NCBI GenBank assembly: GCA_035549255.1
Contig: DASZRD010000009.1
Location: 49,071 to 113,070, forward strand
From: Minisyncoccota bacterium
Lineage (GTDB): Bacteria; Patescibacteriota; Minisyncoccia; Phycocordibacterales; SBAW01
DNA: 64,000 nt
Direction: 5' to 3'
In this document: piece by piece, positions 12,001 through 41,294 of the stretch
How the letters are laid out: every line of letters starts with the position of its first letter
Numbering within the stretch: position 1 is the first letter of the stretch
Program-made: the position numbers and the translations under genes
The notes under the pieces: generated by a model
What the model saw: the letters and a program-made list of their open reading frames with translations, nothing else
What the model was told of the DNA's origin: nothing
Database searches by the model: none

Positions 12001-15000
12001 AACCTGCGCGGCCTCACCTTCCGCACCGGCGGCAACAACACCCACATGGTCATAGACTCCTCGGGCAATGTCGGTATCGGCACCACCAGCCCGGGTGCCA
12101 CCTTCGCCGTAGCGGGCGACGGATACCTGACCGGCGCTCTTACGGTCGGCGGCCAGACCACGCTTGCTGCATCGCTCAATGGCTTGCTCAAAGCCACGAA
12201 CGGCGTCGTCTCGGCTGCTGTAGCAGGAACCGACTACAGCAACTTCGCATATCCGTTCCCGCTCACCGGCAACGCAACCTCATCCCTTACCCAATTCAAC
12301 GGCGGACTCACGGCATATGCGACTTCCACGATCGGCAACGGCGCGCAGGCGGGCGGCCTCACCGTAAGCGGTGGCGCGACGACGACGGGGAATGCGTACT
12401 TTGGGGGGAATGTTGGTATTGGGACCAACGCCCCGACCAGCGCGCTCACGCTCGCACTGGGCAACTCGATCGCCCTCTACAATACCGCCGACCAGACGAC
12501 CAACTACGAGCGCGGCCAGATTGATTGGACCTCAAACGCTCTACGCATCGAGACCGTGGGCGGGGGAAGCGGCTCCAACTCGAGAAGCGTCATTCTCTCC
12601 TCCGGCGGCGCGAACCTGGTGACCGCATCCGCAGGTACGGTCAAGGTAACGCTCAACGGCGGCACCTCGGGCGTCGGCCCGGGCGTCCTCACGAACGGCT
12701 CCTTCAACGGTGCTTCGACTAATCAGGTCGTGCAGTCGATCGCGCCAACCTTCAACCAGTCGGGCACCTCGGGCTATACCGCGCTCTTGATCCAACCGAC
12801 CGAAACCGCCGTCGGCTCGGGGAATAAGTACCTTATCCAGGCCGGCACCAGCACGGCGGCGACGCTCTTCGCCGTCGACAACGCGGGGAATATCACCACC
12901 AATATCACCGGCTCGACGCAATGCCTCCATGTCAATTCGTCCGGCGTTATCTCGGGCACTGGGGCTGACTGCGGCGCCGGCGGCTCGCCGTTCCCATTCA
13001 CGCCGCTCGCGCTCGGCAACGCGACGTCAACCCTGCTTCTCCTCAACAACGGCGTCATTGCCGCAGCGTCTTCAACGATCGGTAATGGTACTGCCGCGGG
13101 CGGTCTCACCATTAACGGTTCAGCTACCTCGACTGGTACGACTACTATCCAAAACGCATTTGCGGTCACAGGCACCAACGGCGGCGTTCCGGTCTCCGGC
13201 GCCGGTACTCGGCTCGAGTTTATTCCTAATCTGGGTGCGCTCCGAGCTGGACAAGTTTCTAGCACCCAGTGGGATGCTTCAAATATCGGCACTTCTTCTT
13301 TCGCGACCGGGCTTGATACTACAGCCTCTGGAGGTTACTCGGCGGCTTTGGGTTATCGAGCGACGGCAAGCGGTGTAGGATCATTTGCCGGCGGCTACTT
13401 TACCGATTGTGGAATGGGTATTATCTCCAGCGGCATTGGCTCGTTTGCATACGGCTATCTTAATCATGGTGTAACAGGCTGCGCGTTTACCCAGATACAG
13501 GCCTCTGGAAATGGCTCAGTTGCTATGGGATATGCGCTTGCCGGTAGAACCATTACTGCTACTCAATCTGGTTCGATCGCTCTCGGTTATGCGAATAACG
13601 GAAGCATTACATCGTCCGGCATTGGTTCATTTGCGGTTGGTGATGGCAATATTACTTCTTCGGGCAGTGGTTCCGTGGCCTTGGGCTATGGCGAGAGCGG
13701 CCTCCTTAGTGCCACTGGACAGGGTGCAGTCGCGATTGGCGCCAATGTTAACGCTACCCAGAACAACGCTCTCGCTTTCGGCTCCTCGTTCACCAACAAC
13801 ATCGCATCCACCTTCCAGGTCGGATTCTCCGCGACACCGACACTCACGGTCACCGCGACGAATACCGGCATCGGCACCACGTCGCCGTACGCCAAGTTCT
13901 CCATCTCTGCCAACGGCAGTGACACCAATAGCACTCTCTTTGCCATTGCATCTTCCACGAGTGGTACTGCAACCTCGACCTTGTTTGCAGTCTCTAACAT
14001 CGGCACTATTACCACCACGCTCGGTGCTGGTGCAGTCGGTGTGAACTCCCTCGGCCAGCTCTACAGCTTCGCTACTTCCTCGGGTTCGGCGGCGTCATCG
14101 ACTCTCCTTGCCGACTACAACACGTTCTCCCACCTCCAGCAATTCAACGGTGGCTTCACGGCGTATGCTTCTTCGACCATTGGCAATGGCGCGCAAATCG
14201 GCGGGCTCACCGTAAGCGGCGGCGCTACGACCACGGGCAACGCGTACTTCGCGGGCAACGTTGGCGTCGGGACAGTATCGCCTGGCTCGACGCTCGATGT
14301 TGGCGGCACGGCGCAGCTGCGCGGCGCGGGCGGTGGGACGGGACTGTATGTCAACAGCAGCGGCAACGTCGGCATCGGTACTACTGGGCAGAATGCCAAG
14401 CTTGAGATCCGCCAGGACGGCAATGGAGTCCAAACCCAGCTCGTCTTGCGCAATAACCAGGGCTCGAGCAATGGCGCGACATCGCGCTTGGGCTTCGGCG
14501 TCTACCGCGATGTCGACGCAACGGCGCTCGGCGCCGCGATCGATGCGATCACCACAGCAGGCATCCCGAACGGCGACAACGCCGAGGGCGCGATCCTCGC
14601 CTTTAGCACGACTAAGGATGGTACTTCCGGCCTGCAGGAGCGCATGCGCATCCTCAACACTGGCAATGTCGGCATCGGTACCAAGAATCCTCAGGCAACC
14701 CTCGACGTCCAGGGCACTGCATCATCGAGCAACCTCTTCGTTACCAACGCTGCCACCACCACCAGCCTTGCGATCACTGGTCTTACTTCGCAGTCCTGCA
14801 TCGGTACCAACTCGCAGGGCCAAGTCGTCGCGGGCACCTGCGGCGGAGGCGGCTCACCATTCCCATTCACGCCGTCTGCGCTTGGCAACTCGACTTCGAC
14901 TCTGCTTCTCCTCAACAACGGCGTCATTGCCACAGCGTCTTCCACAATCGGTAACGGAACAGCGACAGGTGGGCTCACGGTCAACGGCAATTCGACGACG

Positions 15001-18000
15001 ACCGGCAACGTCTACGTTGCCGGTGCCATCGGTATCGGTACCAAGAGCCCATGGGCCTCGCTCGACGTGAATGGCAGCATTGCGATCGCCAACAACAACG
15101 GCGGCAGCACCAACAAGCTCTATCTCGCCTCAGGCGACGGCACGCACTATATATATTCGACCGGTTCTGGCGTGGGCGGCAACAACACCTACTTCGGTGA
15201 ATGGGGCGGCAACTATCACTTCCTCGATACGAGCAATTCGTCCGAGCCGGTTACTATTACCGGAGGCAATCTTGGTGTCGGGACCACGACGCCGACTGCA
15301 AAACTCTCGCTCCAGTACAACTCGGGCGATACGCAGACGACTCTCTTCGCGATCGCGTCCTCAACCGGCAGCACAGCGGTAAACCTCTTCTCGGTCGACA
15401 ATACCGGGCTCACGACGATTGGCAATCCGACCGGTACCGGCGACGCGAATATCCAGTTCGGCGGCGACGCTACGGCATGGTCGGTCGGCAACTACGGGGG
15501 CGACAATTCCTTCCGTATTGCATCCTCGACCAACCTTGCCAACAACGTAGCCTTCGAAGTTACTAAGGCCGGTACCGCCTCGACAACGAACCTTACCATT
15601 TCTTCGCTCGGGGCTTCAGCTGGCAGTTGTCTCACCACCGATTCAAGTGGCAATGTGACAACCACTACATGCGGCGGAGGCGGCTCACCATTCCCATTCA
15701 CGCCGTCTGCGCTTGGCAACTCGACTTCGACTCTGCTTCTCCTCAACAACGGCGTCATTGCCGCAGCGTCTTCCACAATCGGTAATGGCAATCAGAACGG
15801 CGGTCTCACAGTGAGCGGTGGTGCCACCACAACCGGCAACGCGTACTTCGCTGGAAATGTAGGGATTAATAATACTCTTGCAGTTGGGGGGAACGTGGTT
15901 ACTTCCGGAGCGCAGATAGACTCTGCTGGGGTCATTTACTCTCATGGAACCGGAGGCATTAGCTTTGCCTTGAACAGCACTGGCAGTAATTATGGAACCA
16001 TCCAGAATGATGCGCCCGACACATGGTCTCTGGGTACCAACAGTATGCTCACTGGTCTCGGTACGCACGTTCTAACTTGGACAAAGGCTGGCAACATCGG
16101 CATCGGTACCTCGACGCCGGCCAGCCTCCTCACGGTAAGTAATAGCAATACGGGCACACTCACGTACGACGGCACGTCGCTTACGGTCTCGCCGGTCGGT
16201 ACTACGACGACCGCAGGCGCTGTGACCATCACGCCGGGAGCGGCGGGAGGTCCGGGCCTCGGCATCAAAGGATTCAATGGTAACAGCATCGCGCAAATCT
16301 TCACATCCTCCGGCAGCCTCCGCACGCTTCAGATAACTAATACCGGCGCGGGTGGTCTTCAGACAGTCTTTGCGGGCGGTACTGGCAAGAACTTGATCGG
16401 CATCGGGACGACATCGCCGTTTGCTCCGCTCTCAATAGCGGCCAACGGTGGCGACACTAACCCGACACTTTTTGCGATCTCCAGCTCAACCGCCGCCTTT
16501 GCTACCACGACGCTCTTCTCGGTCTCCAACACCGGCTCGACCACCATCGCCAACGGTGTCAACATCACGAGCGGCTGCTACGCGGTCAACGGTACCTGCC
16601 TCTCGACCGGTGGTAGCGGCGGCTCACCATTCCCATTCACGCCGTCTGCGCTTGGCAACTCGACTTCGACCCTGCTTCTCCTCAACAACGGCGTCATTGC
16701 TTCCGCATCCTCGACCATCGGCAACGGTACTGCCGCAGGTGGGCTCACGGTCAATGGCAATTCGACGACGACGGGGAGCCTCTATACTGGCGGCGGTATC
16801 ACGATTGCAGGCACGAACCCGAGCTTCGTATCCCTTTCGGAAAATAACGGCGGGGTTAGCTTCATTAACTATCTCGGCAGCGGCAGTGACGGCACTGGGA
16901 CTTATATCACTAACACATCGAACCATTCTCTGTTCCTCGGCACCAATAATACGACCAAGCTTACGATCGCTGCGGGCGGCAACGTTGGCATAGGCTCAAC
17001 CACGCCGGGCACCCTTCTCTCGATCGGCAGCGTCAACGGCATTAACTTCACCACGGCGACCTCGACCTTCAATTCGACCGGCGGCATCAATATTACGAAC
17101 GGCTGCTATGCGGTGAACGGCGTTTGTCTCACGACCGGCGGCGGGAGCAGCCAATGGACCACGAGCGGCTCGAGCATCTACTACAACACCGGCAGTGTCG
17201 GCGTCGGCACCTCTTCACCGTTCGCCAAGTTCTCGGTCCAGCAGAATTACGGCGACACGCAGACGACGCTCTTCCAGATCAGCTCGTCGACGGCTACCGG
17301 CGGCGCAACCGCTAACTCCTTCTTCTCGGTCGACAATACCGGCCTCACGACGATTGGCGATCCTTCCGGCACCGGCGATGCGAACTTCCAGTTCGCCAAT
17401 GACAACCACGCCTGGTCGGTCGGCTACTATGCGGGCGACAACTCCTTCCGCATCGCGTCGGGCACGTCGCTTGCCTCCAACCCGGCTATCTCCGTCGATA
17501 AGAATGGCACGACGACCATATCCAACGGCGTCAACATACAGTCGGGCTGCTTCTCGGTACAGGGGACGTGTCTCAGCTTCTCGAGCGGAGCCGCGGACTC
17601 GCAATTCGTTAGTACCGACGGTCAGGCGAACATCACCACCTCGACGACCTCGCTCGCCACCATCAGCATCACGCCTTCCACGGCGACTGGCGACGTCTTT
17701 GTCAGCGCGAAGGTAAGCATGTCTTCCAAGACGGCCACCGACTTTATTACCAGCATTGCTGTTCGGGATACGACCTGCACCGGCACGATCTTTGCCCAGG
17801 CGATGGCGAGCTCGACCTCCGCGTCCGGCTCCAACGGTTCGACCGCCTTTGCCAACGGCCTCGAGAACAACCCTGGCACGACGAGCCAGACATACGCGCT
17901 GTGCGCGAGCGATACGTCAGGGACCAACCCGGCGACCTACTTCCTCTCGGCACTCGTCATCAACCCCGGCGCCGACGTGGCAGAGCTTTACTCGACGCTC

Positions 18001-19170
18001 GATGCCGGTATTCAGCCTGGCGACATCGTTTCGGCAGATACGACGCATTTCGAGGGTGTGCGCAAGAGCAGCCCGTATGCTGATTCGCAGCTGATGGGCG
18101 TCGTCTCCACCAACCCGAGCGTCGTCATCGGTACCCCGGTCAATCAAAACGGCAATATCGTGCCGATCGCCTTGCGCGGCCGCATCCCGGTGAAGGTCAA
18201 CCTCGAGGGCGGCGATATCGCCGTGGGCGACCGGATCACGCTCTCGTCGGTGTCAGGCGTCGGCAAGAAGGCGGGTGACCTCGACCAGAGCATCGGCATC
18301 GCTCTTGAGCCGTTCACCGCGCAATCGACGACCACCTCCGTGCTCGTGTTCCTCGACATGCAGCAGGGCGACAACGTCGGCGCGCTCACTAATACTCTGC
18401 TCGGCACCTCGACCGCCACCAGCACTGCTACCAGCACGCCGCAAACAGGCTTTCTCTCGGTGCTCTTCTCCCGCATCGCGAGCTGGCTCGGGGGCGCTGG
18501 CAACGGCATCGCGAACATCTTCACGCAGACGCTCACGGCGACCGTCGTCAACGCCGATACGGTCAACACCAAGCAGCTCTGCATCACCGACGCCTCGGGC
18601 GGCAAGACCTGCGTCACCAAGGCCCAGCTCGACCAGCTCCTCCAGGGCCAGGGAGGTAGCGCGGGCTCTGGCGCAGGGTCCGGTTCAGGTTCGGGCGGCG
18701 CAGGATCGGGCAGCGGCACGACGATGCCCGCAAGCCCCGACCCTGACGCGCCGACGATCACGATCAATGGCGCCAACCCGGCGATGCTCGTGGTAGGCGA
18801 CACGTATGCCGACCTTGGCGTGACGGTGAGCGACGCGCAGGATCAGAATCTCGGCTACCTCGTTTCGCTCGACGGTGCTGCGACCACGACGCCCGACCAG
18901 ATCCATATCGACACGTCGGCCGCAGGAACGCATACCATCACGTACGTCGCGACCGATAACGACGGCAATGTCACGACCGCGCTGCGCACCGTAATCGTCC
19001 AGGATGCGGCGAGCTCGACGCCGTCCGTGCTTCCGCCGGTTGATACGGGCGATACCGGTACCACGACCGGAAGCGGCGCCGATGCGGGCGGCACGGCGAC
19101 CTCGACCGATGCCGGGGCGGGTGCCGGTACCGCACAGGGCGGCGAGGGCACGACTACTCCGGCGGAGTAA
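1..19170 (+). CDS. Giant repetitive cell-surface protein, 5'-partial; more than 6387 aa lie in the window
   Basis: The open frame continues from base 1 with no stop upstream of 7 and ends at TAA 19168-19170. It is Ser/Thr/Gly/Asn-rich. Its parts are 44-aa SQNGYLSS-DWT-FNNK repeats, an LVIVD-like propeller, repeated CGGGGSPFPFTP modules, a GS linker and an Ig-like C-terminus. Confidence 0.85.
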   Translation, partial: AVVGDNSFTFDGTTLNAPAAVFTTLTNLGSANLGTVSTGVWHGTAIADSYVADNLTISGGTINNTPIGAATPSTAVFTNATSTNATTTNFYASGQTRLGSLTGLVSANGGIVTAVATNTLGLLGSTSLSATAPLAYNSSTGVFSISQASGSQDGYLASVDWTQFNNKVSSTSLSATGPLAYNPATGVFSLDQAGTSQDGYLSSADWNVFNNKISSSSLSAAGPLSYNSSTGQFTISQASGSQNGYLSSGDWTIFNNKVSSSSLALVINQAYPFPQAGNGTSTLTQFNGGITAYASSTISALTSIFATTSSFAILNVPSALLTTNAQGQVVATSTLGVAYGGTGSSTLGGILIGNGRGSVTSANVSAPLSFSGNTLSIQAASGSQNGYLSSADWTTFNNKISSTSLSAAAPLSYNSSTGQFTISQASGSQNGYLSSSDWNSFNARLSTTTLGLFDKGYFFSTTSADYYLSQQSLVGFSTTSANYWKTQNNFFSTTSAIYFANASTTIPKTYTANTFTGAQTFQNGITTNALSVGSLTGPLQAIGGVVSSTSTLSIIYGGTGTSTPPTYGKVLLGNAQGGYDLVGTSSLGLITNNSLSAIVPLQYNTGTGVFSIQNAKADSSTLGAATFASNDFNDNGSGLISIDYANAQKATGSQAGLLASSDWNVFNNKISSSSLSGASVIAYNGTTGVISTQAGTFGGNASSVYTFPGDLVTTGTATTTNLYIGGTISGANLSSCSGASDKLLWNSSTQQFSCGTDAGASGSDVNWTHFNNSGIRVTTATDQVLIGFTSTSSLSKLEVHGGATIDNATTTNLVTTGVAYFSGNVGIGTTSPYQSLTVASGNILQVAGSNPTLATSTAVGGSTYGVYTSGNYAYVAAGSVRIVDTTQPGASKVVGSYTGTTQAQSIVVSGKYAYVGDASAGLAILDVSNPASPTLVGSLNYSTVGHPLSIALSGRYLIVPDFDSGKVSVVDIANPAAPAVVGTYTTGGAPATVALSGKYAYIGDQADGNIYIEDISNPAKPVALSPYTGLLGPQAIYISGRYAYVADIAGGLYALDISNPASVSLAGSKTGTGYYTVEVAGDYAYVTDSSGNLVVLDVHNLGSITTAGTYATGVSPRGLALSGKYAYVTSGNSTLKVVDINGAKLPAASIGTIETNSINVADAVKVGGDGFFGGGLNVGASGIFSRGGLAVLGSTTLTDLIAKNATTTNATSTNLYASSLIAGNATSTNLSVSGVASTSNLYISNLVAGALAITASGKAYSFSTSTWTFASSTLLGDSNTFSGGNKFTGNTTLANATSTNFALTNITNALLSTNANGSIIPTTISSPLTFSGNTLSIQQATASQNGYLSLTDWNTFNDKISSTSLSGASVISYDSSSGVITTQPGTFGGSGTYAFPNDVQANGNITAEVDGGASSGPNINLVNSGGFGVGGINFFTYAGQTVPSAQWEAEDVGNWTADQIFSTSVGGGTDAPLAARLIIKGTTGYVGIGTTSPLTTLSVGGNTYLGGSLTATGTVQFSNLAAGAVAATANGQLYTFSTSTWTFASSTLLGDSNTFSGNDTFTTAPKLGSLTGLVAGNSGNLYGLSTSSLNASITGQAGNVANSVTFNNGGSGASSGSTFNGSSAVTISYNTIGAVPATRNINTTFPLQGGGSLASDLTITSAFGTTTTTGLTPNQILYTNANGVLTTAASSTLNLPNAALQNSSVTVNGITCTLGSTCTVASTTLLANSNIFSGNNTFTGNTTLANATSTNLALTNITNALLSTNGSGSIIPTTVSSPLTFSGNTLSIQQANGSQNGYLSSTDWTQFNNKVSSSSLATIINSAYEFPGNATSTQLTFNGGLVATGATTTNLAVTGTASTSNLFISNLAAGALGINASGKAYSFSTSTWTFASSTLLSDSNTFSGNNKFTNPITLGTLNGPLQANNGVVSATSSVGVLYGGTGLTSAPSYGNILVGNSSGGYTLTATSSLGLASLSSFSATAPLSYDSSTGVFSISQANGSQNGYLSSVDWTAFNNKISSTSLSGGTGINYTSSTGVITNTGVIAVGPAGQTQNGTVTIASTTASFNGLTFGVQTVGAAGTLTNTPTIAGTLDNSGLTHSTIGLADANSTLTVSGSPAALGASLSATLNLAHGNIWTAASTTFVGGVTIGSATTTNLVATNATTTNLAITSLANTLLSVNAQGAVVATSSLSVNYLAGVLPVGNGGTGSSTLGGILTGNGTGQVTSAQVSSPLTFSGNTLSIQAASGSQNGYLSSTDWTTFNNKISSTSLSASAPLSYNSSTGQFSISQANGSTNGYLTSSDWTQFNAKVSSSSLALVINQAYEFPNNATSTQIAFNGGLTAAGATTTNLSVSGTASTSNLFISNLAAGALGINATGKAYSFSTSTWTFASSTLLGDNNTFSGTDTFTNAPKLSTLTGLISGNSGTLYGTATGTVSGSNGISVTAGQSIIGSGLTITATNAVADASTKGVATFAANDFNDNGSGLISIDYANGQLASGSQNGFLSNSDWNSFNSRLSTTTLGLFDKGYFFSTTSASYFLAQNQGNAFSTTSAIYFANASTTIPKTYTANTFTGAQTFQNGITTNALSLGTLSGPLQANNGVVSATSSIGVLYGGTGLTSAPSYGTILVGNSSGGYTLTATSSLGLAALSSFSATAPLQYDNTTGIFSITQANGSTNGYLSSVDWTAFNNKISSTSLSATGPLSYNPSTGVFAISQANGSTNGYLSSTDWNTFNQKVSSSSLYSYVAGNKDWQIINGALSPTTTLGIGVYASSTIGNGAQSGGLTVNGGATTTGNAYFAGNVGIGTQSPSARLDINASYTTTGFPLSVKNSGYYNAYFQGTNANNQASFYMENDRGSFASYGGFLYGGSTSGLSNLFGAPRADRLFMFADGASNLGYYVGTLTAQPFVIGTNNLERARVDGTTGYVGIATTSPLTTLSVGGNTYLGGNLTATGTVQFTNLSAGAVAATANGTLYTFSTSTWTFASSTLLGDNNTFSGNNTFTNVPKLGGLTGLVAGNSGNLYGLSTTSLNASITGQAGNVANAVTFNNSGSGASSGSTFNGSSAVTISYNTIGAQVAGTYVTSVGATYPLISSGGTAPVISSAFGTSTNWGLGANGIVVTNASGVPFIAASSTLNLPNSALQNSTITVNGIAFNLGDSKTITAASSTLLANSNTFSGNNTFTGNTTLANATSTNLALTNITNALLSTNGSGSIIPTTVSSPLTFSGNTLSIQAASASQNGYLSSTDWTQFNNKVSSSSLAAVVNQAYEFPSNATSTQIAFNGGLTATGATTTNLSVTGTASTSQLYISNLSTGGLGISSTGKVYSFATSTWTFASSTLLGDSNTFSGNNTFTNAPKLGSLTGLVAGNSGNLYGLSTSSLNASITGQAGNVANSVTFNNGGSGASSGSTFNGSGALTVSYNTIGAQVAGTYVTSVNATYPLLSSGGTAPTISTAFGTTTNTGIGSNLFIYTDNNGVFKGAASSSLNLPNSALQNSSITINTSGGLTGGAAVSLGNSISLGCQAASGSQAGCLSSTDWTTFNNKVSSSSLAALNYAAYPFYAAGNATTTLTQFNGGLTAYASSTIGNGILGLTVNGPATTTGNLVVQGSGTSTIAGSLSVSGNLNFNGNLLQNGVPFSSSQWITNGSSIYYGTGNVGIGTSTPYAKLSVAGDIVGGTINATSTTATSTIAGSFNVGNGALSYDVNSGITSINNLQLGAQTFDADAGILSWIDMPVTSASSAGTVESYSAQIDGNPLLTIYSQSDGSGGIQNAAVGIGTTSPFAMLSVQGSGYLAGSLTITGITATGTVQLTSLTGGAVAANPNGTLYTFATSTLTSASSTLLGDSNTFSGNNTFTNAPKLGSLTGFVAANNGTLYQLASSSLNLPNAALQNSSITINGTAFNLGDSKTVAAASSTLLGDTNTFSGTQNAFTNKVGIGTTSPRTTLQVAAGGSGILPQASSIAAFESNSNGYISLLTPDSAENGLLFGSPTGGNADAGIIYNNNTNLRGLTFRTGGNNTHMVIDSSGNVGIGTTSPGATFAVAGDGYLTGALTVGGQTTLAASLNGLLKATNGVVSAAVAGTDYSNFAYPFPLTGNATSSLTQFNGGLTAYATSTIGNGAQAGGLTVSGGATTTGNAYFGGNVGIGTNAPTSALTLALGNSIALYNTADQTTNYERGQIDWTSNALRIETVGGGSGSNSRSVILSSGGANLVTASAGTVKVTLNGGTSGVGPGVLTNGSFNGASTNQVVQSIAPTFNQSGTSGYTALLIQPTETAVGSGNKYLIQAGTSTAATLFAVDNAGNITTNITGSTQCLHVNSSGVISGTGADCGAGGSPFPFTPLALGNATSTLLLLNNGVIAAASSTIGNGTAAGGLTINGSATSTGTTTIQNAFAVTGTNGGVPVSGAGTRLEFIPNLGALRAGQVSSTQWDASNIGTSSFATGLDTTASGGYSAALGYRATASGVGSFAGGYFTDCGMGIISSGIGSFAYGYLNHGVTGCAFTQIQASGNGSVAMGYALAGRTITATQSGSIALGYANNGSITSSGIGSFAVGDGNITSSGSGSVALGYGESGLLSATGQGAVAIGANVNATQNNALAFGSSFTNNIASTFQVGFSATPTLTVTATNTGIGTTSPYAKFSISANGSDTNSTLFAIASSTSGTATSTLFAVSNIGTITTTLGAGAVGVNSLGQLYSFATSSGSAASSTLLADYNTFSHLQQFNGGFTAYASSTIGNGAQIGGLTVSGGATTTGNAYFAGNVGVGTVSPGSTLDVGGTAQLRGAGGGTGLYVNSSGNVGIGTTGQNAKLEIRQDGNGVQTQLVLRNNQGSSNGATSRLGFGVYRDVDATALGAAIDAITTAGIPNGDNAEGAILAFSTTKDGTSGLQERMRILNTGNVGIGTKNPQATLDVQGTASSSNLFVTNAATTTSLAITGLTSQSCIGTNSQGQVVAGTCGGGGSPFPFTPSALGNSTSTLLLLNNGVIATASSTIGNGTATGGLTVNGNSTTTGNVYVAGAIGIGTKSPWASLDVNGSIAIANNNGGSTNKLYLASGDGTHYIYSTGSGVGGNNTYFGEWGGNYHFLDTSNSSEPVTITGGNLGVGTTTPTAKLSLQYNSGDTQTTLFAIASSTGSTAVNLFSVDNTGLTTIGNPTGTGDANIQFGGDATAWSVGNYGGDNSFRIASSTNLANNVAFEVTKAGTASTTNLTISSLGASAGSCLTTDSSGNVTTTTCGGGGSPFPFTPSALGNSTSTLLLLNNGVIAAASSTIGNGNQNGGLTVSGGATTTGNAYFAGNVGINNTLAVGGNVVTSGAQIDSAGVIYSHGTGGISFALNSTGSNYGTIQNDAPDTWSLGTNSMLTGLGTHVLTWTKAGNIGIGTSTPASLLTVSNSNTGTLTYDGTSLTVSPVGTTTTAGAVTITPGAAGGPGLGIKGFNGNSIAQIFTSSGSLRTLQITNTGAGGLQTVFAGGTGKNLIGIGTTSPFAPLSIAANGGDTNPTLFAISSSTAAFATTTLFSVSNTGSTTIANGVNITSGCYAVNGTCLSTGGSGGSPFPFTPSALGNSTSTLLLLNNGVIASASSTIGNGTAAGGLTVNGNSTTTGSLYTGGGITIAGTNPSFVSLSENNGGVSFINYLGSGSDGTGTYITNTSNHSLFLGTNNTTKLTIAAGGNVGIGSTTPGTLLSIGSVNGINFTTATSTFNSTGGINITNGCYAVNGVCLTTGGGSSQWTTSGSSIYYNTGSVGVGTSSPFAKFSVQQNYGDTQTTLFQISSSTATGGATANSFFSVDNTGLTTIGDPSGTGDANFQFANDNHAWSVGYYAGDNSFRIASGTSLASNPAISVDKNGTTTISNGVNIQSGCFSVQGTCLSFSSGAADSQFVSTDGQANITTSTTSLATISITPSTATGDVFVSAKVSMSSKTATDFITSIAVRDTTCTGTIFAQAMASSTSASGSNGSTAFANGLENNPGTTSQTYALCASDTSGTNPATYFLSALVINPGADVAELYSTLDAGIQPGDIVSADTTHFEGVRKSSPYADSQLMGVVSTNPSVVIGTPVNQNGNIVPIALRGRIPVKVNLEGGDIAVGDRITLSSVSGVGKKAGDLDQSIGIALEPFTAQSTTTSVLVFLDMQQGDNVGALTNTLLGTSTATSTATSTPQTGFLSVLFSRIASWLGGAGNGIANIFTQTLTATVVNADTVNTKQLCITDASGGKTCVTKAQLDQLLQGQGGSAGSGAGSGSGSGGAGSGSGTTMPASPDPDAPTITINGANPAMLVVGDTYADLGVTVSDAQDQNLGYLVSLDGAATTTPDQIHIDTSAAGTHTITYVATDNDGNVTTALRTVIVQDAASSTPSVLPPVDTGDTGTTTGSGADAGGTATSTDAGAGAGTAQGGEGTTTPAE
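382..777 (+). repeat. Three tandem 132-bp (44-aa) repeats 'LSA..PL.YNSSTG.F.ISQASGSQ(N/D)GYLSS.DWT.FNNK.SS.S'. More copies are dispersed at about 1080-1320, 3960-4090, 5320-5460, 5890-6080, 6680-6930, 7930-8220, 9630-9770 and 10540-10640.
   Basis: Found by direct inspection of the translated giant ORF and its DNA. Confidence 0.8.
2560..3440 (+). repeat. Eight '(S/A)G.YAYV...L.(I/V)(L/V)D(V/I)SNPA.P..VG.Y' blades, matching the LVIVD-repeat beta-propeller pattern, inside the giant protein
   Basis: The unit recurs every ~40 aa: SGNYAYVAAGSVRIVD..., SGKYAYVGDASAGLAILDVSNP..., SGRYLIVPDFDSGKVSVVDIANP..., SGKYAYIGD..., SGRYAYVADIAGGLYALDISNP..., AGDYAYVTDSSGNLVVLDV..., SGKYAYVTSGNSTLKVVDI... Confidence 0.6.
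14851..14958 (+). repeat. ~100-bp near-identical intragenic direct repeat, copy 1 (GGSPFPFTPSALGNSTSTLLLLNNGVIA module)
   Basis: An ~81-bp stretch 'ggctcaccattcccattcacgccgtctgcgcttggcaactcgacttcgac(t/c)ctgcttctcctcaacaacggcgtcattgc' starts at 14851, 15682 and 16621 and differs at only one base in the third copy. A diverged copy sits at ~12982. Confidence 0.85.
15682..15789 (+). repeat. ~100-bp near-identical intragenic direct repeat, copy 2
   Basis: See copy 1. Confidence 0.85.
16621..16730 (+). repeat. ~100-bp near-identical intragenic direct repeat, copy 3
   Basis: See copy 1. Confidence 0.8.
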
Positions 19171-19183
19171 TATATAAAGATCC

Positions 19184-20158
19184 ATGAAAAAATGGCTGAT
19201 CATCGGTTTGCTTATCCTCGCCGTCGGGGTGTCCCTGGGTTTGTGGGCGTCGCGCATGCTTGTAAGGAGCGCGCCTTCCTGCTCGGCAGAGTATCCGTTG
19301 CTGGACGACTCCGTCGGATGCGACGATGCGCAGCCCGTCATAACCAAGACGAGCTATACCGCGCTGCAGCAGAGCCTGCTTGCATACATACAAAATGAGA
19401 AGAGTTCGGGGGACACGGCCGATATAGCGATCTTTTTCCGCGACCTTAAGGACGGACCGGTGTTCGGCATCAACGAGCTTGAGGATTTTACGCCCGCGAG
19501 CCTGCTGAAGCTCCCGCTGGCGTTCGCCTATCTCAATGTCGCCGACGAGTACCCGGATTATCTGCAGAAGGAGCTCTTCTATACCGGTACCTCGTCCGTG
19601 ATCGATCAGAATTTCCCGCCCCCCGTCTCCGTCAAGGCCGGGCAGCCGTATACGCTCGAAGAGCTTCTGCAGTACATGATTTCGTACTCCGACAATGGCG
19701 CCTACCAAATGCTCAACGATTATCTCGCTGGCGACCCGAGCCGCAAGGTCCTCCTCGACCAGACCTTCCAGGAGCTCGGTATCATCGACCCCGCGAGCGA
19801 GGATGCGAACACGGTCAGCGTGCGGAGCTATGCGTCGCTCTTCCGGCTGCTCTACAGCGCGGCGTATATCAGCCCCGACCACTCGCAGCTCCTCCTCCAG
19901 TGGCTCTCGGACTCGTCCTTTACCCAGGGGCTGGTTGCGGGCGTACCCGAAGGGGTCACCGTCGCCCACAAATTCGGCGAGCGCTCATTGCCGGACGGCA
20001 CGAAGCAGCTCCATGACTGTGGCATCGTCTATTTTCCGGAGAACCCCTACATCTTGTGCGTCATGACGAAGGGGAGCGACTGGACCAAGCTTGAAGGCGT
20101 GTTGCGGACCGTCTCGCAAATGGTCTATGCGGAAGTCTTATCGAGGAAGCAGAACTAG
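19184..20158 (+). CDS. Membrane-anchored serine hydrolase with a class A beta-lactamase / PBP-like fold
   Basis: It has an N-terminal TM helix, an S-x-x-K motif (PASLLKLP), an SDN motif (YSDNGA) and a K-x-G motif (HKFGE). Its start is 13 nt after the giant gene's stop. Confidence 0.6.
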   Translation: MKKWLIIGLLILAVGVSLGLWASRMLVRSAPSCSAEYPLLDDSVGCDDAQPVITKTSYTALQQSLLAYIQNEKSSGDTADIAIFFRDLKDGPVFGINELEDFTPASLLKLPLAFAYLNVADEYPDYLQKELFYTGTSSVIDQNFPPPVSVKAGQPYTLEELLQYMISYSDNGAYQMLNDYLAGDPSRKVLLDQTFQELGIIDPASEDANTVSVRSYASLFRLLYSAAYISPDHSQLLLQWLSDSSFTQGLVAGVPEGVTVAHKFGERSLPDGTKQLHDCGIVYFPENPYILCVMTKGSDWTKLEGVLRTVSQMVYAEVLSRKQN

Positions 20159-20219: not shown

Positions 20220-23200
20220 ATGCAGGGCAGGGCAGGGCGCATCATAAAAAAACCGATACAAAGATTCTTCGCGAGCATGCTTGTGCTCGCGCTTGTCGCG
20301 GAAGCCTACGCCCCGCTGCCAACCGTCCTAAAACTTCCTCTTTTTAAGGAAGGTACGGTGCACGCAAGTTCAACGATAGTTACTTACCTTACATCCGGTA
20401 CTTCCTGGACTGTACCTCTCGACTGGAACTCCGCGAGCAATACCATCGAAGTCATCGGCGGCGGTGGGGGTGGTGGTAATGGTGCAAGCGGAGTTGCTGG
20501 TGGCGGTGGAGGAGGTGGCGGCGCATATTCAAAAACCTCGAACCTTTCCTTGGTTCCCGGTAACAGTGTCGCCTATGGCATTGGGACTGGCGGTAGCGCC
20601 CAAACATCTGGCGGCGATACTTTTTTTAACAGAACCTCGGGTTCAGCTAATACTTGTGCAGACGTATCGTCTGTGTGTGCAAAAGGGGGTTCCGGTGCCA
20701 CGAGCGCGACTGGCGCAGGCGGCGGTTCATCTGGAAGCGGCCGAGGAAGCACATTGTATTCTGGTGGCACCGGCGGCACGGTCCCCAGCGGCGGCTCGAT
20801 GGGTGCCGGGGGCGGCGGGGCAGCAGGCCTTAACGGGGCGGGAAAAAACGGCGGCACACCTACCGGCGGCAACCCTGTGGGCGGTTCAGGCGGCGGCGGC
20901 GCTGATAACGGGGCTAATGGTGCTGCCAATACTACAACCACTGGTGGCGCAGGTGGGGCTAACTATCTTGGCTCTGGAGGTGGGTCTGGGGGTACTACGG
21001 GAGTTGGCGGCACAGGTAGTAACGGCGGTGGAGGCGGAGGTGGCGGAGCGGCTACCTCTAATACTTCTTTTGCTGGTGGTGCTGGCGGCGCGGGTATCGA
21101 GTGGGATGCATCACATGGTTCGGGAGGTGGAGCAGGCGGAGCTGCCATGAACGATACTGGCTCTACCGCTGCTACAAATGGCTCTACTGGAGGTCTATAT
21201 GGCGGCGGTGGATCTGGTGGCGCCGCGACCTCCCATGGTGGCTCGACCGGCGGCTCTGGCGCCCAGGGCCTCATCGTCATCACGTATACGCCGGTTGTTC
21301 AAATTTCAACGATCTTTCTTACTTCCGGCACATCCTGGACCGTACCGAACGATTGGAATTCGTCTAATAATACTGTCGAAGTCATCGGCGGCGGTGGCAG
21401 TGGTGGTGCCGCTAAGAATAATGGTGTTAGTTCGGGATCCGGTGGTGGTGGTGGCGGCTATGCAAAAATAACGAATCTAAATCTTACTCCCGGGACTTTG
21501 GTTACTTATCAAGTTGGGGCTGGCGGTACTGCAGTTACTGCCACTGCCGGAAGCGGAAGCGCAGCTGATGTACCAGGGAATAATGGTACAGCCTCATACT
21601 TTAATGGCACGTCTGCCGCTGCTTCAAGTGTCGCAGCAAATGGCGGATCGGGGGGAGGAGCAATCGGCACCTCAGGATCTCTTAGCGGAGGTGCGGGTGG
21701 CACTGTCGTTGTTGGTTCGGGGTATAGTGGAGGCGCCGGGGGTTTAATAAGTGGTAGCGGTTCAAGTGCTCGCGGTACCGGCGGCGGCGGCGCAGGAGGA
21801 TCAAATGGAGCTGGAAATTCGGGTGCGACTTTGTCGGCTACAGGTGCAAGCGATGGGGGTTCCGGCGACGCCGGCTTCGGCGGTTCTTCGACGGGGACAG
21901 CGGGGGCCTTAAATAATACTGCTAGTTCTGGCGGCAACGGGACCGAATGGAATTCTGCGCCCGCGTATGGTGCTGGTGGCGGTGGCGGCGGAGCATATGC
22001 GACTGGGGTAGCTTCTATTGCTGGTGGTGATGGAGGCACCTATGGTGCGGGTAGCGGTGGAGCGGCAAACGATAGAAATTCTTCCGGCTCGGCAACATCT
22101 GGTGCCGGACAACCGGGCATCATCGTCATCACGTATACGTCCTATGTTCCACCCTCCCGCATCATCCGCCTCTTCGGCTCGTATACAAGCGCGCCGATGC
22201 ATATTTACCTTACGACGACCGGCTCGGGCACGTGGACGGTCCCGAGCGACTTTACTTCCAACGGCAGCAGTATCGAAGTCATCGGAGCCGGCGGAGGTAC
22301 GGCAAATACCAACGGCCCCTGCTGCGGCTACGGAGCATACGGGAGCGGCGGCGGCGCATATTCTGAAATTTCGAATGTCTCGCTTACGCCGGGCACTACG
22401 GTCGGCATTAATGTCCCGGCCGGAGGAGCCCCCGGCAGCAGCGGCGGGGATACGTGGCTGTGCAGCTCAACTTCGGGATGTTCATCAATAACTGATACGA
22501 ATGTCATTGTTGGCGCCAAGGGCGGCACAGTGGGGAATCAATCATCGGGCTTAGGTGGCGCATATACATCTGGTGTAGGCACCATAAGATATTCCGGCGG
22601 CAACGGCGGCGTGGGTATCGACACGAATGGCAGCGGCGGCGTCGATTATGCCGGCGGCGGAGGCGGCGCGGGAGGGCCGAACGGCAATGGCGCAAATGGA
22701 GGCAATGGTAGCAGCCTTTCAGAATTCGCTGGCGGCGGCGGTGGCAACGGCGGAGGGTCTGCAGGCCAAGCAGCTTCAACCATAGCGGGAGGCAGTGGCG
22801 GTAATAACTCTCTTGGTTCGGGAGCCGGGGCCGGAGGCAGCAGCAGCAACTCCAATACCTGCAGCGCAGGTACAAATGGCGGTGGTGGTGGCGGAGGCGA
22901 TGGAGGCGCTGGCTGTACTGGCGGTAATGGTACAGAGTGGGACGCCTCTCATGGCTCCGGAGGCGGAGGCGGAGGCGGTTCGACAGGCGGGAACGGCGGT
23001 ACCTATGGCGGCGGGGCAGGTTCTTCAGGCACTACTCCTACCGCAACAGGCGGTCAGGGCATCATTGTCATCACGTACTCACGGCCCAATGTGCGGACAT
23101 TGCGGATTATAGGAGGCGCTGCGCAGCAAATCCTTGGGGGTACTAAGCAAGTAGTTCTTTCGGCCAATCCCGGAGGCGGAAATCAGACATGGATCGTGCC

Positions 23201-24164
23201 AGGAGACTTCAGCTCCCTCATCAAAGTTGAGTGTATTGGGTCTGGAGGGCATGGAGGACAAGGGAATGCTAGTAATGCCGGGGGTGGTGGCGGCGGCGGT
23301 GGAGCTTATGCGTCAACCACGGCGGTTACTGGCCTTACTCCCGGTGCCTCGATATTGTATGCCGTGGGCGCATCAGCAACAACGACTTCGGCAACGAACC
23401 CAGTCGCTAATGCTCGAGAAACGTACTTTAATGGCACCGCATCTTCTACTGCAGCGCTTACCTGTGATTGGGGAAGAATGGGTGGTGTTCCGACAGGCGG
23501 TATTGCAGGCTCGACCGCTTTCTCTGTTCCTTCCTCGAATTCTTCAACGGGCGGTTCTTATGCTGGCGGCTCTGGCGGTGGCGGTTCGAGTGGAACTACG
23601 GGTGGCGGTGGCGGTGGCGGTGGAAGCGCGGGTCCTATTGGAATAGGAAAGTCAGGTGGCACCGCTCAAACCTTAACTAACTTAGGAAGTGCCGGCGGCG
23701 GCGGGGGTTCTAATGGCGGCTCTTCAACTGCTGGGGGTTCACCAAGTTCGGGCGGTCCTGGTGGCAATGGTGGTAATAACACTTCTGGTACAGGAGGTGG
23801 TAGTGGGACGGCAGCATCAATGGGGGGCGCAAGTGCTAGTGCTACGGACGGTTCTAACGGCGGCGGCGGCGGCGGTTCAGGTGGTGCGAATACTACATCT
23901 GGTGCAGGTGGTAGTGGTTCATGCGATACGACTCTTGATGGTAGTACGAGTGGCGCGTGCGGCGGCGGCGGCGGCTCAGGATTCCCAAACGGAGGTACCC
24001 CCGGCCAGCCGGGTGCTGGAGGCGCCTTCGGCGGCGGCGGCGGCGGCGCGAGTTCTCAGATATCACCTCTTGTTCCTGGAGCATCAGGGGGTCAAGGCAT
24101 CATTGTAATTACCTACTCGTCCATTAGTTACCGCCCCGTCATCAAGCTGTATCAATCGCAATAA
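20220..24164 (+). CDS. Gly-rich secreted multi-module protein (1314 aa) with four tandem ~300-aa modules
   Basis: An N-terminal hydrophobic segment is followed by four modules. Each starts '..TSG(T)SWTVP.DW.S..N.IEVIGGGGGG', carries a central 'S.ISN.SLTPGT.V.Y.VG.GG' and ends 'GQGIIVITY(T/S)'. About 45% of residues are Gly. Confidence 0.8.
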   Translation: MQGRAGRIIKKPIQRFFASMLVLALVAEAYAPLPTVLKLPLFKEGTVHASSTIVTYLTSGTSWTVPLDWNSASNTIEVIGGGGGGGNGASGVAGGGGGGGGAYSKTSNLSLVPGNSVAYGIGTGGSAQTSGGDTFFNRTSGSANTCADVSSVCAKGGSGATSATGAGGGSSGSGRGSTLYSGGTGGTVPSGGSMGAGGGGAAGLNGAGKNGGTPTGGNPVGGSGGGGADNGANGAANTTTTGGAGGANYLGSGGGSGGTTGVGGTGSNGGGGGGGGAATSNTSFAGGAGGAGIEWDASHGSGGGAGGAAMNDTGSTAATNGSTGGLYGGGGSGGAATSHGGSTGGSGAQGLIVITYTPVVQISTIFLTSGTSWTVPNDWNSSNNTVEVIGGGGSGGAAKNNGVSSGSGGGGGGYAKITNLNLTPGTLVTYQVGAGGTAVTATAGSGSAADVPGNNGTASYFNGTSAAASSVAANGGSGGGAIGTSGSLSGGAGGTVVVGSGYSGGAGGLISGSGSSARGTGGGGAGGSNGAGNSGATLSATGASDGGSGDAGFGGSSTGTAGALNNTASSGGNGTEWNSAPAYGAGGGGGGAYATGVASIAGGDGGTYGAGSGGAANDRNSSGSATSGAGQPGIIVITYTSYVPPSRIIRLFGSYTSAPMHIYLTTTGSGTWTVPSDFTSNGSSIEVIGAGGGTANTNGPCCGYGAYGSGGGAYSEISNVSLTPGTTVGINVPAGGAPGSSGGDTWLCSSTSGCSSITDTNVIVGAKGGTVGNQSSGLGGAYTSGVGTIRYSGGNGGVGIDTNGSGGVDYAGGGGGAGGPNGNGANGGNGSSLSEFAGGGGGNGGGSAGQAASTIAGGSGGNNSLGSGAGAGGSSSNSNTCSAGTNGGGGGGGDGGAGCTGGNGTEWDASHGSGGGGGGGSTGGNGGTYGGGAGSSGTTPTATGGQGIIVITYSRPNVRTLRIIGGAAQQILGGTKQVVLSANPGGGNQTWIVPGDFSSLIKVECIGSGGHGGQGNASNAGGGGGGGGAYASTTAVTGLTPGASILYAVGASATTTSATNPVANARETYFNGTASSTAALTCDWGRMGGVPTGGIAGSTAFSVPSSNSSTGGSYAGGSGGGGSSGTTGGGGGGGGSAGPIGIGKSGGTAQTLTNLGSAGGGGGSNGGSSTAGGSPSSGGPGGNGGNNTSGTGGGSGTAASMGGASASATDGSNGGGGGGSGGANTTSGAGGSGSCDTTLDGSTSGACGGGGGSGFPNGGTPGQPGAGGAFGGGGGGASSQISPLVPGASGGQGIIVITYSSISYRPVIKLYQSQ

Positions 24165-36901: not shown

Positions 36902-38287
36902 ATGAGGGCGAACATAGGGAGGGCTGCCGCTCTCTTACTGATTGGCATCATAATCTGCGCGGGGGTGTACACATCACTTATGCTTGCGCCGCACGCAAGC
37001 GCGCAGACGCTCACCGACCAGCAGAAGGCGCAGCTTCAGGCGCAGTACGATGAGCTGCAGGCCGAGATCGCGCAATGGCAGCAGGTACTCAATGACACCA
37101 AGGCCAAGAAAGCAAGCCTCCAGGGCGACGTGACGACGCTCAATGCCGAGATTGCCAAGGCGCAGGCGGAGATCAAGCAGCGCACGATCACCATAACGAC
37201 GCTCGGCAACGAGATCGACCAGAAGAACGCGCAGATCAGCGACCTCGAGGACTCGATCGACCAGGGCCACGACTCCCTCGCCAAGCTCCTGCGCCAGATG
37301 AACGAGACGGAGACCGAGTCGCTCGTGGTGCTCGCGTTCTCGGCGAGCAACCTCTCGGACTTCCTCTCCGATGTCGACAATATCAATTCGATCAACAGCG
37401 CGCTTGAGGCGCAATTCAACCAGATACGCAATACGCAAGCGCAGGTCGCGATCGCGCGCGACGCACTGAGCACCCAGCAAGACGCACAGATCGACGCGGA
37501 GCACGACGTCGAGGTGAAAAAGTCCCAGATCCAGGACGACCAGACGCAGAAGAAGCAGCTCCTCGCCGTCACGACGCAAAACGAGACGACCTACAGCCAG
37601 ATACTCGCGCAGCGCCAGGCGCAGGCGGCGGCGATCCGCGCGGCACTCTTCCCGCTGCGCGACGCGGCGGCGATCAACTTCGGCACCGCGCTCACCTACG
37701 CGCAGGCCGCGCAGAAGGCGACCGGCGTCGACCCGGCCTTCGTACTCGCGATCCTCACGCAAGAGTCCAACTTGGGCGCCAACGTCGGCCAGTGCTATCT
37801 TTCCAACGACAAGACGGGCGCGGGCGTCGGCAAGAATACCGGCACCGCCTTCGCCAACGTCATGAGCCCGACGCGCGATGTGCCGCCCTTCTTGGCGCTT
37901 GCCGATCAGCTCGGCTTCGACCCGCACCATCAGGTGGTCTCGTGCCCGATCCCGAGCGCGGGCGGCTGGGGCGGCGCCATGGGTCCGGCGCAATTCATCG
38001 CCTCGACGTGGGCGACGATGGCGAGCAAAGTTGCGACGGCGCGCGGCGAGTCCATAGCCAATCCGTGGGACCCACAAGACGCGATCATGGCGATGTCCAT
38101 ATATCTCGGCAATCTGGGCGCCTCGGCCGGCACGTATTCCTCCGAGCGTACGGCAGCCGCCAAATACTACGCGGGCGGGGCGTGGGCGACCGCAGGGCAG
38201 ACCTATGCCAACCAAGTGATGTCCAAGGTCGACTCGATACAGAAGAATATCGACTGCCTCACCGACAACAGTACCTGTAGCATCTAA
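36902..38287 (+). CDS. Secreted coiled-coil protein with a C-terminal lytic-transglycosylase (SLT)-like domain
   Basis: A signal peptide is followed by ~230 aa of heptad-rich Q/A/E/L coiled coil. The C-terminus carries 'LTQESNLG...GAMGPAQF'. Confidence 0.6.
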   Translation: MRANIGRAAALLLIGIIICAGVYTSLMLAPHASAQTLTDQQKAQLQAQYDELQAEIAQWQQVLNDTKAKKASLQGDVTTLNAEIAKAQAEIKQRTITITTLGNEIDQKNAQISDLEDSIDQGHDSLAKLLRQMNETETESLVVLAFSASNLSDFLSDVDNINSINSALEAQFNQIRNTQAQVAIARDALSTQQDAQIDAEHDVEVKKSQIQDDQTQKKQLLAVTTQNETTYSQILAQRQAQAAAIRAALFPLRDAAAINFGTALTYAQAAQKATGVDPAFVLAILTQESNLGANVGQCYLSNDKTGAGVGKNTGTAFANVMSPTRDVPPFLALADQLGFDPHHQVVSCPIPSAGGWGGAMGPAQFIASTWATMASKVATARGESIANPWDPQDAIMAMSIYLGNLGASAGTYSSERTAAAKYYAGGAWATAGQTYANQVMSKVDSIQKNIDCLTDNSTCSI

Positions 38288-41218: not shown

Positions 41219-41294
41219 GCCGCCTTAGCTCAGTTGGTAGAGCAACTCTTTTGTAAAGAGAAGGTCCCCAGTCCGAATCTGGGAGGCGGCTCCA
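41219..41294 (+). tRNA. tRNA-Thr(UGU) with an encoded 3' CCA
   Basis: It folds into a cloverleaf. The acceptor stem is GCCGCCT/AGGCGGC and the D-arm is AGCTCAGTTGGTAGAGC. The anticodon loop is TTTGTAA. The T-arm is GGTCCCCAGTCCGAATCTGGG, followed by a T discriminator and CCA. Confidence 0.85.

Follow-up and report, generated by a model that had tools for sequence, protein, structure and literature searches.

We examined a gene in a 64,000-nt stretch of DNA from a Minisyncoccota bacterium (contig DASZRD010000009.1; the whole stretch is called the window below), which encodes a putative membrane-anchored serine enzyme with the fold shared by the penicillin-binding protein (PBP) PBP-A and the class A beta-lactamases. 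The open reading frame (ORF) runs from an ATG at 19184 to 20158 on the forward strand and encodes 324 amino acids (aa). As a sequence-only reading of the window had described, it lies between a giant gene (7..19170) and a Gly-rich ORF (20220..24164), and the distance of 13 nt given there between the stop of the giant gene and the start of the hydrolase gene is exact, with the TAA of the former at 19168-19170 and the spacer at 19171-19183. Because a scan of this 13-nt spacer found no promoter-like site and no terminator-like site, the two genes are probably co-transcribed. Taken alone, the gene is a typical representative of a large, deposited and uncharacterised family of the ultrasmall Patescibacteria; what is new is the family-wide K-F-G-E form of box III, together with a strong one-sided association of the family with giant fibre genes. 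The features concerned are the following.

19184..20158, + strand: complete gene for the membrane-anchored serine enzyme, PBP-A / class A beta-lactamase fold, 324 aa plus stop
19184..19270, + strand: predicted N-terminal signal-anchor, aa 1-29, MKKW followed by the hydrophobic 19-mer LIIGLLILAVGVSLGLWAS, from hydropathy and the model helix
19271..19357, + strand: linker or N-terminal extension, aa 30-58, with the conserved Cys33/Cys46 pair and an invariant Lys55, from the family alignment
19358..20143, + strand: catalytic domain, aa 59-320, class A / PBP-A fold, with the Cys pair C279/C292, from secondary structure and fold matches
19499..19510, + strand: box I, S106-L-L-K109 (= S70-x-x-K73), nucleophile Ser and general-base Lys, read from the DNA
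19688..19696, + strand: box II, S169-D170-N171 (= S130-D-N132), read from the DNA
19781..19813, + strand: short loop IIDPASEDANT, aa 200-210, at the omega-loop position by the HMMER alignment to PBP-A
19970..19981, + strand: variant box III, K263-F264-G265-E266, which is K-[T/S]-G in class A enzymes and PBPs, read from the DNA
19171..19183, + strand: 13-nt spacer between the stop of the giant gene and the hydrolase ATG
7..19170, + strand: upstream partner, 3' part of the giant secreted fibre gene, 6387 aa in the window
17959..18375, + strand: conserved module of ~135 aa in the giant protein, common to nearly all hydrolase-linked giants

The protein matches the Pfam family PF13354 (Beta-lactamase2) along the full profile (E 5.6e-36, 124.3 bits against a gathering threshold of 22, profile positions 2-214 of 214). 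When an AlphaFold2 model built from 50 relatives (predicted local distance difference test score, pLDDT, 93.3; predicted template modelling score, pTM, 0.87) was compared with the PDB using Foldseek, PBP-A (Tll2115; 2j9o/2j7v) was the top match with an E-value of 1e-17, followed by the class A enzymes PER, TLA and GES. NCBI lists an identical protein under the name "serine hydrolase [Candidatus Paceibacterota bacterium]", encoded on a 177-kb contig of GCA_964442315.1, and the closest other relatives, with 43-53% identity and a length of ~325 aa (about 320-335), all match PF13354; those that are named come from Paceibacteria, Kaiserbacteria, Saccharimonadales and other Patescibacteria. An exhaustive profile search returned 2159 clusters at 50% identity with E 1e-30 or better. 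All signatures of this family are present in our protein, namely, the N-terminal anchor, the C..C linker, PASLLK, SDN, AHKFGER, HDCG and PY.LC.MT.

The N-terminus carries a hydrophobic segment directly after Lys-Lys (residues 5-23, Kyte-Doolittle mean 2.35), residues 2-29 form one helix in the AlphaFold2 model, and an equivalent of the segment is found in 47 of the 50 relatives. Given its length, the segment is more probably a signal-anchor than a cleaved signal peptide. The linker that follows (aa 30-58) is modelled less confidently, with pLDDT 67-87. Two Cys pairs, C33/C46 and C279/C292, are conserved, each with a separation of 13 residues, and these pairs, taken with the hydrophobic segment behind Lys-Lys, make it probable that the catalytic domain is extracytoplasmic and the protein a type-II membrane-anchored one. 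Its single N-terminal helix is preceded by just 4 residues on the predicted cytoplasmic side, with no cytoplasmic signalling domain, and the ectodomain is acidic, with an isoelectric point (pI) of 4.4 compared with a family median of 5.0. The full-profile match, the fold of the model and the N-terminal helix bear out the earlier description of the product as a serine hydrolase of beta-lactamase fold, tethered to the membrane by an N-terminal transmembrane helix.

The active site and the omega-loop position

All three catalytic boxes are conserved in an alignment of the 50 relatives, whose mean column identity is ~47%. Both S106 and K109 of box I, which align with S70/K73 of TEM-1 and S61/K64 of PBP-A, are present in 50/50 sequences, as are the Ser and the Asp of box II (the Asn in 48/50) and each of the four residues K, F, G and E of box III. 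The positions invariant in the 50 sequences are S106, K109, S169, D170, K263, G265, E266, D278, C279 and C292; judged from this pattern, the catalytic set is under selection. The nucleophile lies 63 residues before the SDN motif, compared with 60 in TEM-1, and the distance from S169 to K263 is 94 residues, compared with 104 in TEM-1 and 97 in PBP-A. The sequence-only reading had recognised SLLK, SDN and KFG in the order and spacing of class A enzymes, and this holds, with the motifs read from the DNA and their catalytic residues invariant; moreover, all alignments put Ser/Lys, SDN and Lys-x-Gly on S70/K73, S130-N132 and K234/G236, so that the catalytic Ser and Lys appear to be placed as in class A. 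The departure from the canonical boxes is confined neither to this protein nor to the 50 relatives: 252 box III motifs were found in 256 of the 268 family proteins, 225 of them KFGE and every one of them K[F/Y]G, with no KTG or KSG among the 252.

In class A enzymes, Glu166 and Asn170 of the omega loop are responsible for the fast deacylation of beta-lactams. At the sequence level, no conserved equivalent of these residues was found in either of two alignment registers, one anchored on PBP-A with HMMER and the other obtained with hhalign. In the first, D202 falls on L158 of PBP-A (= Glu166), in a column that varies across the family (D34/A7/N6/P2/I1), and the ~13 residues absent with respect to class A fall in the omega loop. 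In the second, positions 166 and 170 of TEM-1 correspond to Q196 and I200, and a 10-residue length difference is placed before helix H6, not in the omega loop. The FQE[LW]G motif, which our protein shares with PBP-A, leads us to favour the register anchored on PBP-A. Between S130 and K234, a stretch that includes the omega loop, our protein has 10 residues fewer than TEM-1, and the AlphaFold2 model has a 12-residue coil at 199-210, the omega-loop position.

Since the omega-loop Glu166/Asn170 for fast deacylation are missing, the enzyme is, on the evidence of its sequence, not a beta-lactamase. It scores 86.3 bits with the NCBIfam model NF033103 (bla_class_A), whose cut-off is 200, and at most 50 bits with the specific NCBIfam bla families, whose cut-offs are 320-685. 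The Thr/Ser of box III is the residue that holds the substrate carboxylate in beta-lactamases and PBPs; with an invariant Phe in its place and a Glu two residues on, neither beta-lactams nor a C-terminal D-Ala carboxylate would be expected to bind well.

Several side observations concern the family and its records. Three proteins of ~600 aa (P0121, P0124 and P0162) are tandem duplications of the hydrolase domain with a K[F/Y]G box in both halves; at least P0121 has a lipoprotein-like N-terminus (LFLSC), and these two-domain members may originate outside Patescibacteria. Some genomes have two hydrolase copies: on the contig of P0099 (L171) two paralogues in opposite orientation, ~3 kb from each other, lie next to a P-type ATPase gene, and one metagenome-assembled genome has near-identical copies on two contigs (L062 and L064). 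Many contigs, including L016, L031, L035, L046 and L051, are titled 'uncultured Gammaproteobacteria', 'Nitrospirota', 'Terriglobales' or the like despite a Patescibacteria-type hydrolase gene and giant neighbours; as these records are probably mislabelled or mis-binned, their titles are not trustworthy for the taxon.

Linkage to giant fibre genes

Among 10 annotated contexts of hydrolase genes, 8 have a same-strand upstream gene with a product of at least 1676 aa. The full-length products have 7526, 6938, 8485, 3491 and 2053 aa, and those that are cut or interrupted have at least 1676, 1685 and 2087 aa. Six of these 8 large genes are directly adjacent to the hydrolase gene, and one overlaps it by 4 nt. 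For counting we used 80 species-representative loci plus the window's own contig; 62 loci had at least 3 kb of upstream sequence, and the downstream side, with 64 loci, served as the control. A same-strand frame of at least 1000 aa ends within 200 nt upstream in 22/62 loci, against 2/64 for the downstream control (Fisher p = 2e-6), and such a frame lies within 3 kb upstream in 33/62 loci, against 3/64 (Fisher p = 5e-10). Because many of the frames are cut by the 10-kb flank, their sizes are lower bounds. All-against-all clustering of the neighbour ORFs places the upstream proteins in one homologous group, which occurs in 52 of the 81 loci, at position -1 in 32 of them and at -2 or -3 in 17 more; where the upstream sequence is long enough (62 loci), a member precedes the hydrolase on its strand in 38. 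A place behind a giant fibre gene is very frequent in the K-F-G-E family and a conserved feature of it. In the literature searched, we found no paper linking this family to giant proteins, and the papers on giant genes of Omnitrophota proved unrelated.

The giant ORF of the window leaves it at the 5' end and has 7526 aa in the public contig. It contains the ~135-aa module; among 14 such modules, 5 give weak hits to the autoproteolytic intramolecular chaperone (IMC) domain Peptidase_G2 (best E 0.004), and the hits to phage tail-fibre or cement families, with phrog_6427 matched by 12, are weak as well. The module is followed (about 18745-18990) by a PF16403 immunoglobulin (Ig)-like domain and then a Gly/Thr/Asp-rich tail. 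Complete giants begin with a Sec signal peptide, behind which the mature protein starts with the conserved motif [IL]N[FY]QG[KR]L, and the giants end in an Ig-like or "FSW" domain plus a variable Pro/Thr/Glu-rich tail; no C-terminal sorting, membrane or LPXTG-type anchor was found in the upstream giants. In these features, the giant of the window resembles a secreted fibre of the tail-fibre type more than it does a classical anchored adhesin.

The linkage was also followed in the reverse direction, starting from the ~135-aa module of the giants in an independent collection of metagenome contigs. The module alignment A2 (14 sequences) contained no stretch conserved enough to serve as the query, and the closer set A3 was used instead. 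Because just 4 of the 67 evaluable large proteins directly precede a hydrolase gene, with a convergent hydrolase copy within a few kb for 5 more, the two genes do not make up an obligate cassette: the linkage is one-sided, with one hydrolase per several paralogous fibres, encoded beside one of them.

Other loci of the family have recurrent neighbours that are absent from the window, namely, a ~156-aa transmembrane protein (26 loci), a ~660-aa polytopic membrane protein with C-terminal tetratricopeptide repeats (TPRs; 17 loci, position +1 in 13) and a family 2 glycosyltransferase (GT2) of ~248 aa (9 loci, position +2 in 7). Loci with such downstream neighbours include L009, L039, L048 and L069. 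These three proteins possibly form a glycoconjugate or protein-glycosylation module; such a pathway stays a guess, since searches of Pfam, NCBIfam and the PDB matched the ~660-aa protein to TPR only and the ~156-aa protein to nothing.

In the window itself, the hydrolase gene is followed by the Gly-rich 1314-aa ORF, a 188-aa ORF, a 947-aa LamG protein and then housekeeping genes. The Gly-rich ORF (20220-24164, +) consists of four repeated units, each ending in '...GIIVITY', and belongs to no Pfam or NCBIfam family; as homologues of it adjoin the hydrolase in just 3 of the 81 loci, it stands outside the conserved pair. The 947-aa ORF (24765-27608, +) has a Laminin_G_3 domain (PF13385) at its C-terminus, and this gene model is uncertain, because the public annotation of this DNA has four genes there, of 100, 162, 133 and 249 aa. 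A LamG protein is also encoded immediately 3' of the hydrolase in the related locus L003/L008. A second wall-cutting enzyme, with an SLT lytic-transglycosylase domain (PF13406/PF01464), is encoded 17 kb downstream at 36902-38287 (+). The rest of the window holds housekeeping genes for GAPDH, transketolase, a PfkB kinase, a class II aldolase, PheT, GyrB and DnaE, and a tRNA-Thr gene at 41219-41294. An antisense ORF of 271 aa that overlaps the hydrolase gene (19154..19969, -) has no homology support and was dismissed as a by-product of the high G+C content (~60%).

Candidate functions

We propose that the gene product is a type-II membrane-anchored extracytoplasmic acyl-serine enzyme of PBP-A / class A fold, in which Ser106, activated by Lys109, would form the standard PBP catalytic set with the Ser169-Asp-Asn171 loop and Lys263. 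A peptide or ester substrate would give an acyl-enzyme on Ser106, and the acyl group would be passed to water or to an amine; by analogy with PBP-A, a wall peptide might acylate Ser106 and then be hydrolysed. Since Phe and Glu of box III take the place of the carboxylate-binding Thr/Ser, the bond that is cut probably has no free carboxylate beside it, and a cut of the endopeptidase or amidase type, in a cross-link or an amidated stem peptide, would fit better than a D-Ala-D-Ala carboxypeptidase activity, against the classical form of which the invariant Phe itself argues. The linker of ~30 residues would confine the domain to the wall-proximal zone of its own cell, where it could locally remodel the envelope, and the position of the gene behind the giant suggests that the cell coordinates this activity with exporting or displaying the fibre. 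That the enzyme is such a wall-proximal peptidase, co-expressed with the giant fibre and remodelling the cell's own envelope, is a reading that we consider evenly poised, and peptidoglycan as its substrate has a chance that we put at even or slightly below. Peptidoglycan trimming, as the sequence-only reading had it, is thus plausible from the analogy with PBP-A.

Several points weigh against this proposal. We know of no characterised PBP or class A enzyme with a Phe in box III, which is invariant here, and in the class C-like branch, loss of the box III hydroxyl goes with non-peptidoglycan substrates, as in esterases, amidases and acyltransferases. On the side of the genes, the reverse search placed a hydrolase directly downstream of only the 4 giants in 67, and no feature was found that separates linked from unlinked giants, as the FSW domain and the Pro/Thr-rich tail occur in both. 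Neither mur nor pbp nor ftsW was found among 106 neighbour ORFs, which include single cases of LytR_C and BacA and a sporadic GT2, and peptidoglycan-synthesis genes are not enriched among them. Finally, the authors of the PBP-A study regard an acidic pI as a trait of beta-lactamases rather than of wall-acting PBPs (PMC11189452).

Of the alternatives, an esterase, amidase or acyltransferase that acts on a target other than peptidoglycan fits several of the same observations, and we consider it rather unlikely. The target would be a D-alanyl or O-acyl ester on a wall glycopolymer or on a lipid-linked precursor, or else the enzyme would mature or process the giant fibre. The invariant Phe and the Glu stand where a carboxylate-binding Thr/Ser would be expected, and an altered third motif is frequent in esterases of the beta-lactamase fold, for example, FmtA and the family VIII esterases. 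In addition, the TPR membrane protein and the GT2 encoded at +1 and +2 of other loci (13 and 7 loci, respectively) hint at a glycoconjugate pathway, and the Pro/Thr/Ser-rich tails of the giants are of a type that is often glycosylated. However, among relatives of known structure the closest is a genuine DD-peptidase, the window itself has neither the TPR nor the GT2 neighbour, and the termini of the giants have no conserved cleavage or attachment motif specific to the hydrolase-linked copies.

A bolder proposal makes the K-F-G-E enzymes a Patescibacteria-specific branch of PBPs and dedicated partners of the giant fibres, which would either open a way through the cell's own wall for a fibre of ~750 kDa or fix the fibre to it covalently, as a PBP-fold analogue of a sortase, with Phe and Glu as the switch from the D-Ala-D-Ala carboxylate to a protein or amide partner; we regard it as speculative and improbable. 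The covalent variant, a PBP-fold transpeptidase that would fix the anchor-less giant to peptidoglycan in the manner of a sortase, or would cross-link wall peptides around the fibre, is taken by itself more doubtful still. It would account for giants with cleavable Sec signal peptides and the [IL]N[FY]QG[KR]L motif that have no membrane or LPXTG-type C-terminal anchor, and for a hydrolase gene that directly follows the giant gene and sometimes overlaps its stop; foreign amines, moreover, can be used as acceptors by PBPs. However, we know of no PBP that serves as a protein anchor, an adjacent hydrolase is missing for most giants of this family, no acceptor or donor motif sets the linked giants apart, and PBP-A gave no transpeptidase products in vitro (PMC11189452).

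The sequence-only reading had allowed for the wall of a host as the target of the enzyme, and it is on this point that our results depart from it. Patescibacteria are epibionts, and the gene is linked to a presumed attachment fibre, so an attack on the peptidoglycan of a host or prey cell at the contact site of a giant adhesin might be envisaged. It is very unlikely, however, because the N-terminal anchor, present in 47 of the 50 relatives, and the short linker would hold the catalytic domain near the producer's own membrane, beneath its own wall, and Pfam finds no secretion or toxin-delivery domain in the protein.

A functional class A beta-lactamase, or a sponge for beta-lactams, protecting the cell or its host, is suggested by the pipelines of JGI and others, which name relatives 'beta-lactamase class A', and by two distant relatives from the candidate phyla radiation (CPR), A-1 and A-2, that are reported to degrade some penicillins (PMC9145738). 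Against it stand the 86 bits with bla_class_A, well short of the cut-off of 200, the lack of Glu166/Asn170, the Phe in place of the carboxylate-binding Thr/Ser235 together with a Glu at 237 that would repel the beta-lactam carboxylate, and a conserved operon position after a surface-fibre gene, which is unlike that of a resistance gene; we give it almost no weight, and the sequence-only reading was right to set antibiotic resistance aside. Hardly any more credible is a catalytically idle binder or sensor of wall peptides or beta-lactams of the BlaB/BlaR type, for which the altered box III might speak, given that the Ser, Lys, Ser-Asp-Asn and Lys positions are all invariant across the family and that the protein, with 4 cytoplasmic residues, has no cytoplasmic signalling domain.

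Patescibacteria make up a large share of bacterial diversity and live attached to other cells, and almost nothing is known of how they build and decorate their envelopes. The ~2,100 clusters of this family are labelled "beta-lactamase class A" or "serine hydrolase" and have been counted in surveys of the CPR "resistome", a reading of the family that the absence of beta-lactamase hallmarks corrects. The one-sided linkage to giant genes offers a handle on the export and holding of proteins of 2,000 to 8,500 residues, and the invariant aromatic residue in the K-x-G box is a natural experiment on the role of this box in the PBP / beta-lactamase superfamily.

Comparison with known systems

The closest relative in both fold and sequence is PBP-A of Thermosynechococcus elongatus (Tll2115; PDB 2j7v, 2j8y and 2j9o), which has a class A fold without Glu166. 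PBP-A is a DD-carboxypeptidase and DD-endopeptidase with the active site S61-K64, S122-N124, L158 and K219-T-G-D222; the wild-type protein has an N-terminal transmembrane anchor plus a spacer, and enzymes of its type have been described as confined to cyanobacteria (PMC11189452). Both proteins have the SxxK and SDN boxes, an omega-loop position without a catalytic Glu (L158 in PBP-A), an acidic residue right after the box III Gly (KTG-D in PBP-A and KFG-E here), the FQE[W/L]G and [G/H]D[A/C]G motifs, and a membrane anchor with a spacer, here the hydrophobic aa 5-23 and the linker 30-58. However, their identity is just ~25-27%, an invariant Phe stands where PBP-A has the box III Thr, our protein has a loop ~7 residues shorter at the omega-loop position and also two conserved Cys pairs, and its ectodomain has a pI of 4.4, compared with 7.56 for PBP-A. 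Moreover, PBP-A is cyanobacterial, whereas our enzyme, whose activity is a predicted one, belongs to Patescibacteria and is linked to giant fibres.

The class A beta-lactamases TEM-1, PER-1/2, TLA and GES share the fold (Foldseek TM-score, target-normalised, 0.73-0.82), the aligned S70/K73, S130-D-N132 and K234/G236 and the match to PF13354. They differ from our protein, which has no Glu166/Asn170, has Phe at 235 in place of the T/S of K234-[T/S]235-G236 and Glu at 237, is 10 residues shorter between S130 and K234 than TEM-1, and is membrane-anchored.

Closer in origin are A-1 and A-2 from Microgenomates (Maatouk et al. 2022), which are likewise PF13354-type proteins of Patescibacteria with an N-terminal hydrophobic segment, a short omega region and an 'AHK.GE/D ... 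HD.G' signature, and which BLASTP aligns with our protein at E 2e-23 and 27% identity (A-1) and E 1e-13 and 25% identity (A-2). At so low an identity they form a family separate from that with K-F-G-E, and they have a canonical K-T-G. Both were expressed, and slow degradation of some penicillins was detected by liquid chromatography-mass spectrometry, in a report that contains no gene-context analysis (PMC9145738); such slow turnover would be PBP-like behaviour. In the transposon-sequencing data for Southlakia epibionticum, the one entry of this kind is a 598-aa 'serine hydrolase' with PF13354 and PG_binding_4 domains, which was non-essential; its architecture differs from that of the K-F-G-E hydrolase.

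A hydrophobic residue in box III (K-I-G) is also present in the 'putative beta-lactamase' EF NP_815223.1 of Enterococcus faecalis (PDB 3cjm), an uncharacterised structural-genomics target with ~22-23% identity and no known link to a giant protein. At the level of function alone, an analogy can be drawn with the dedicated wall enzymes of envelope-spanning machines, such as FlgJ, EtgA and VirB1, which presumably clear space for the structure exported and which are glycosidases or lytic transglycosylases rather than PBP-fold enzymes: in these systems, as in the gene pair described here, where the tie comes from gene context alone, an enzyme that would act on the wall is encoded beside a very large exported structure.

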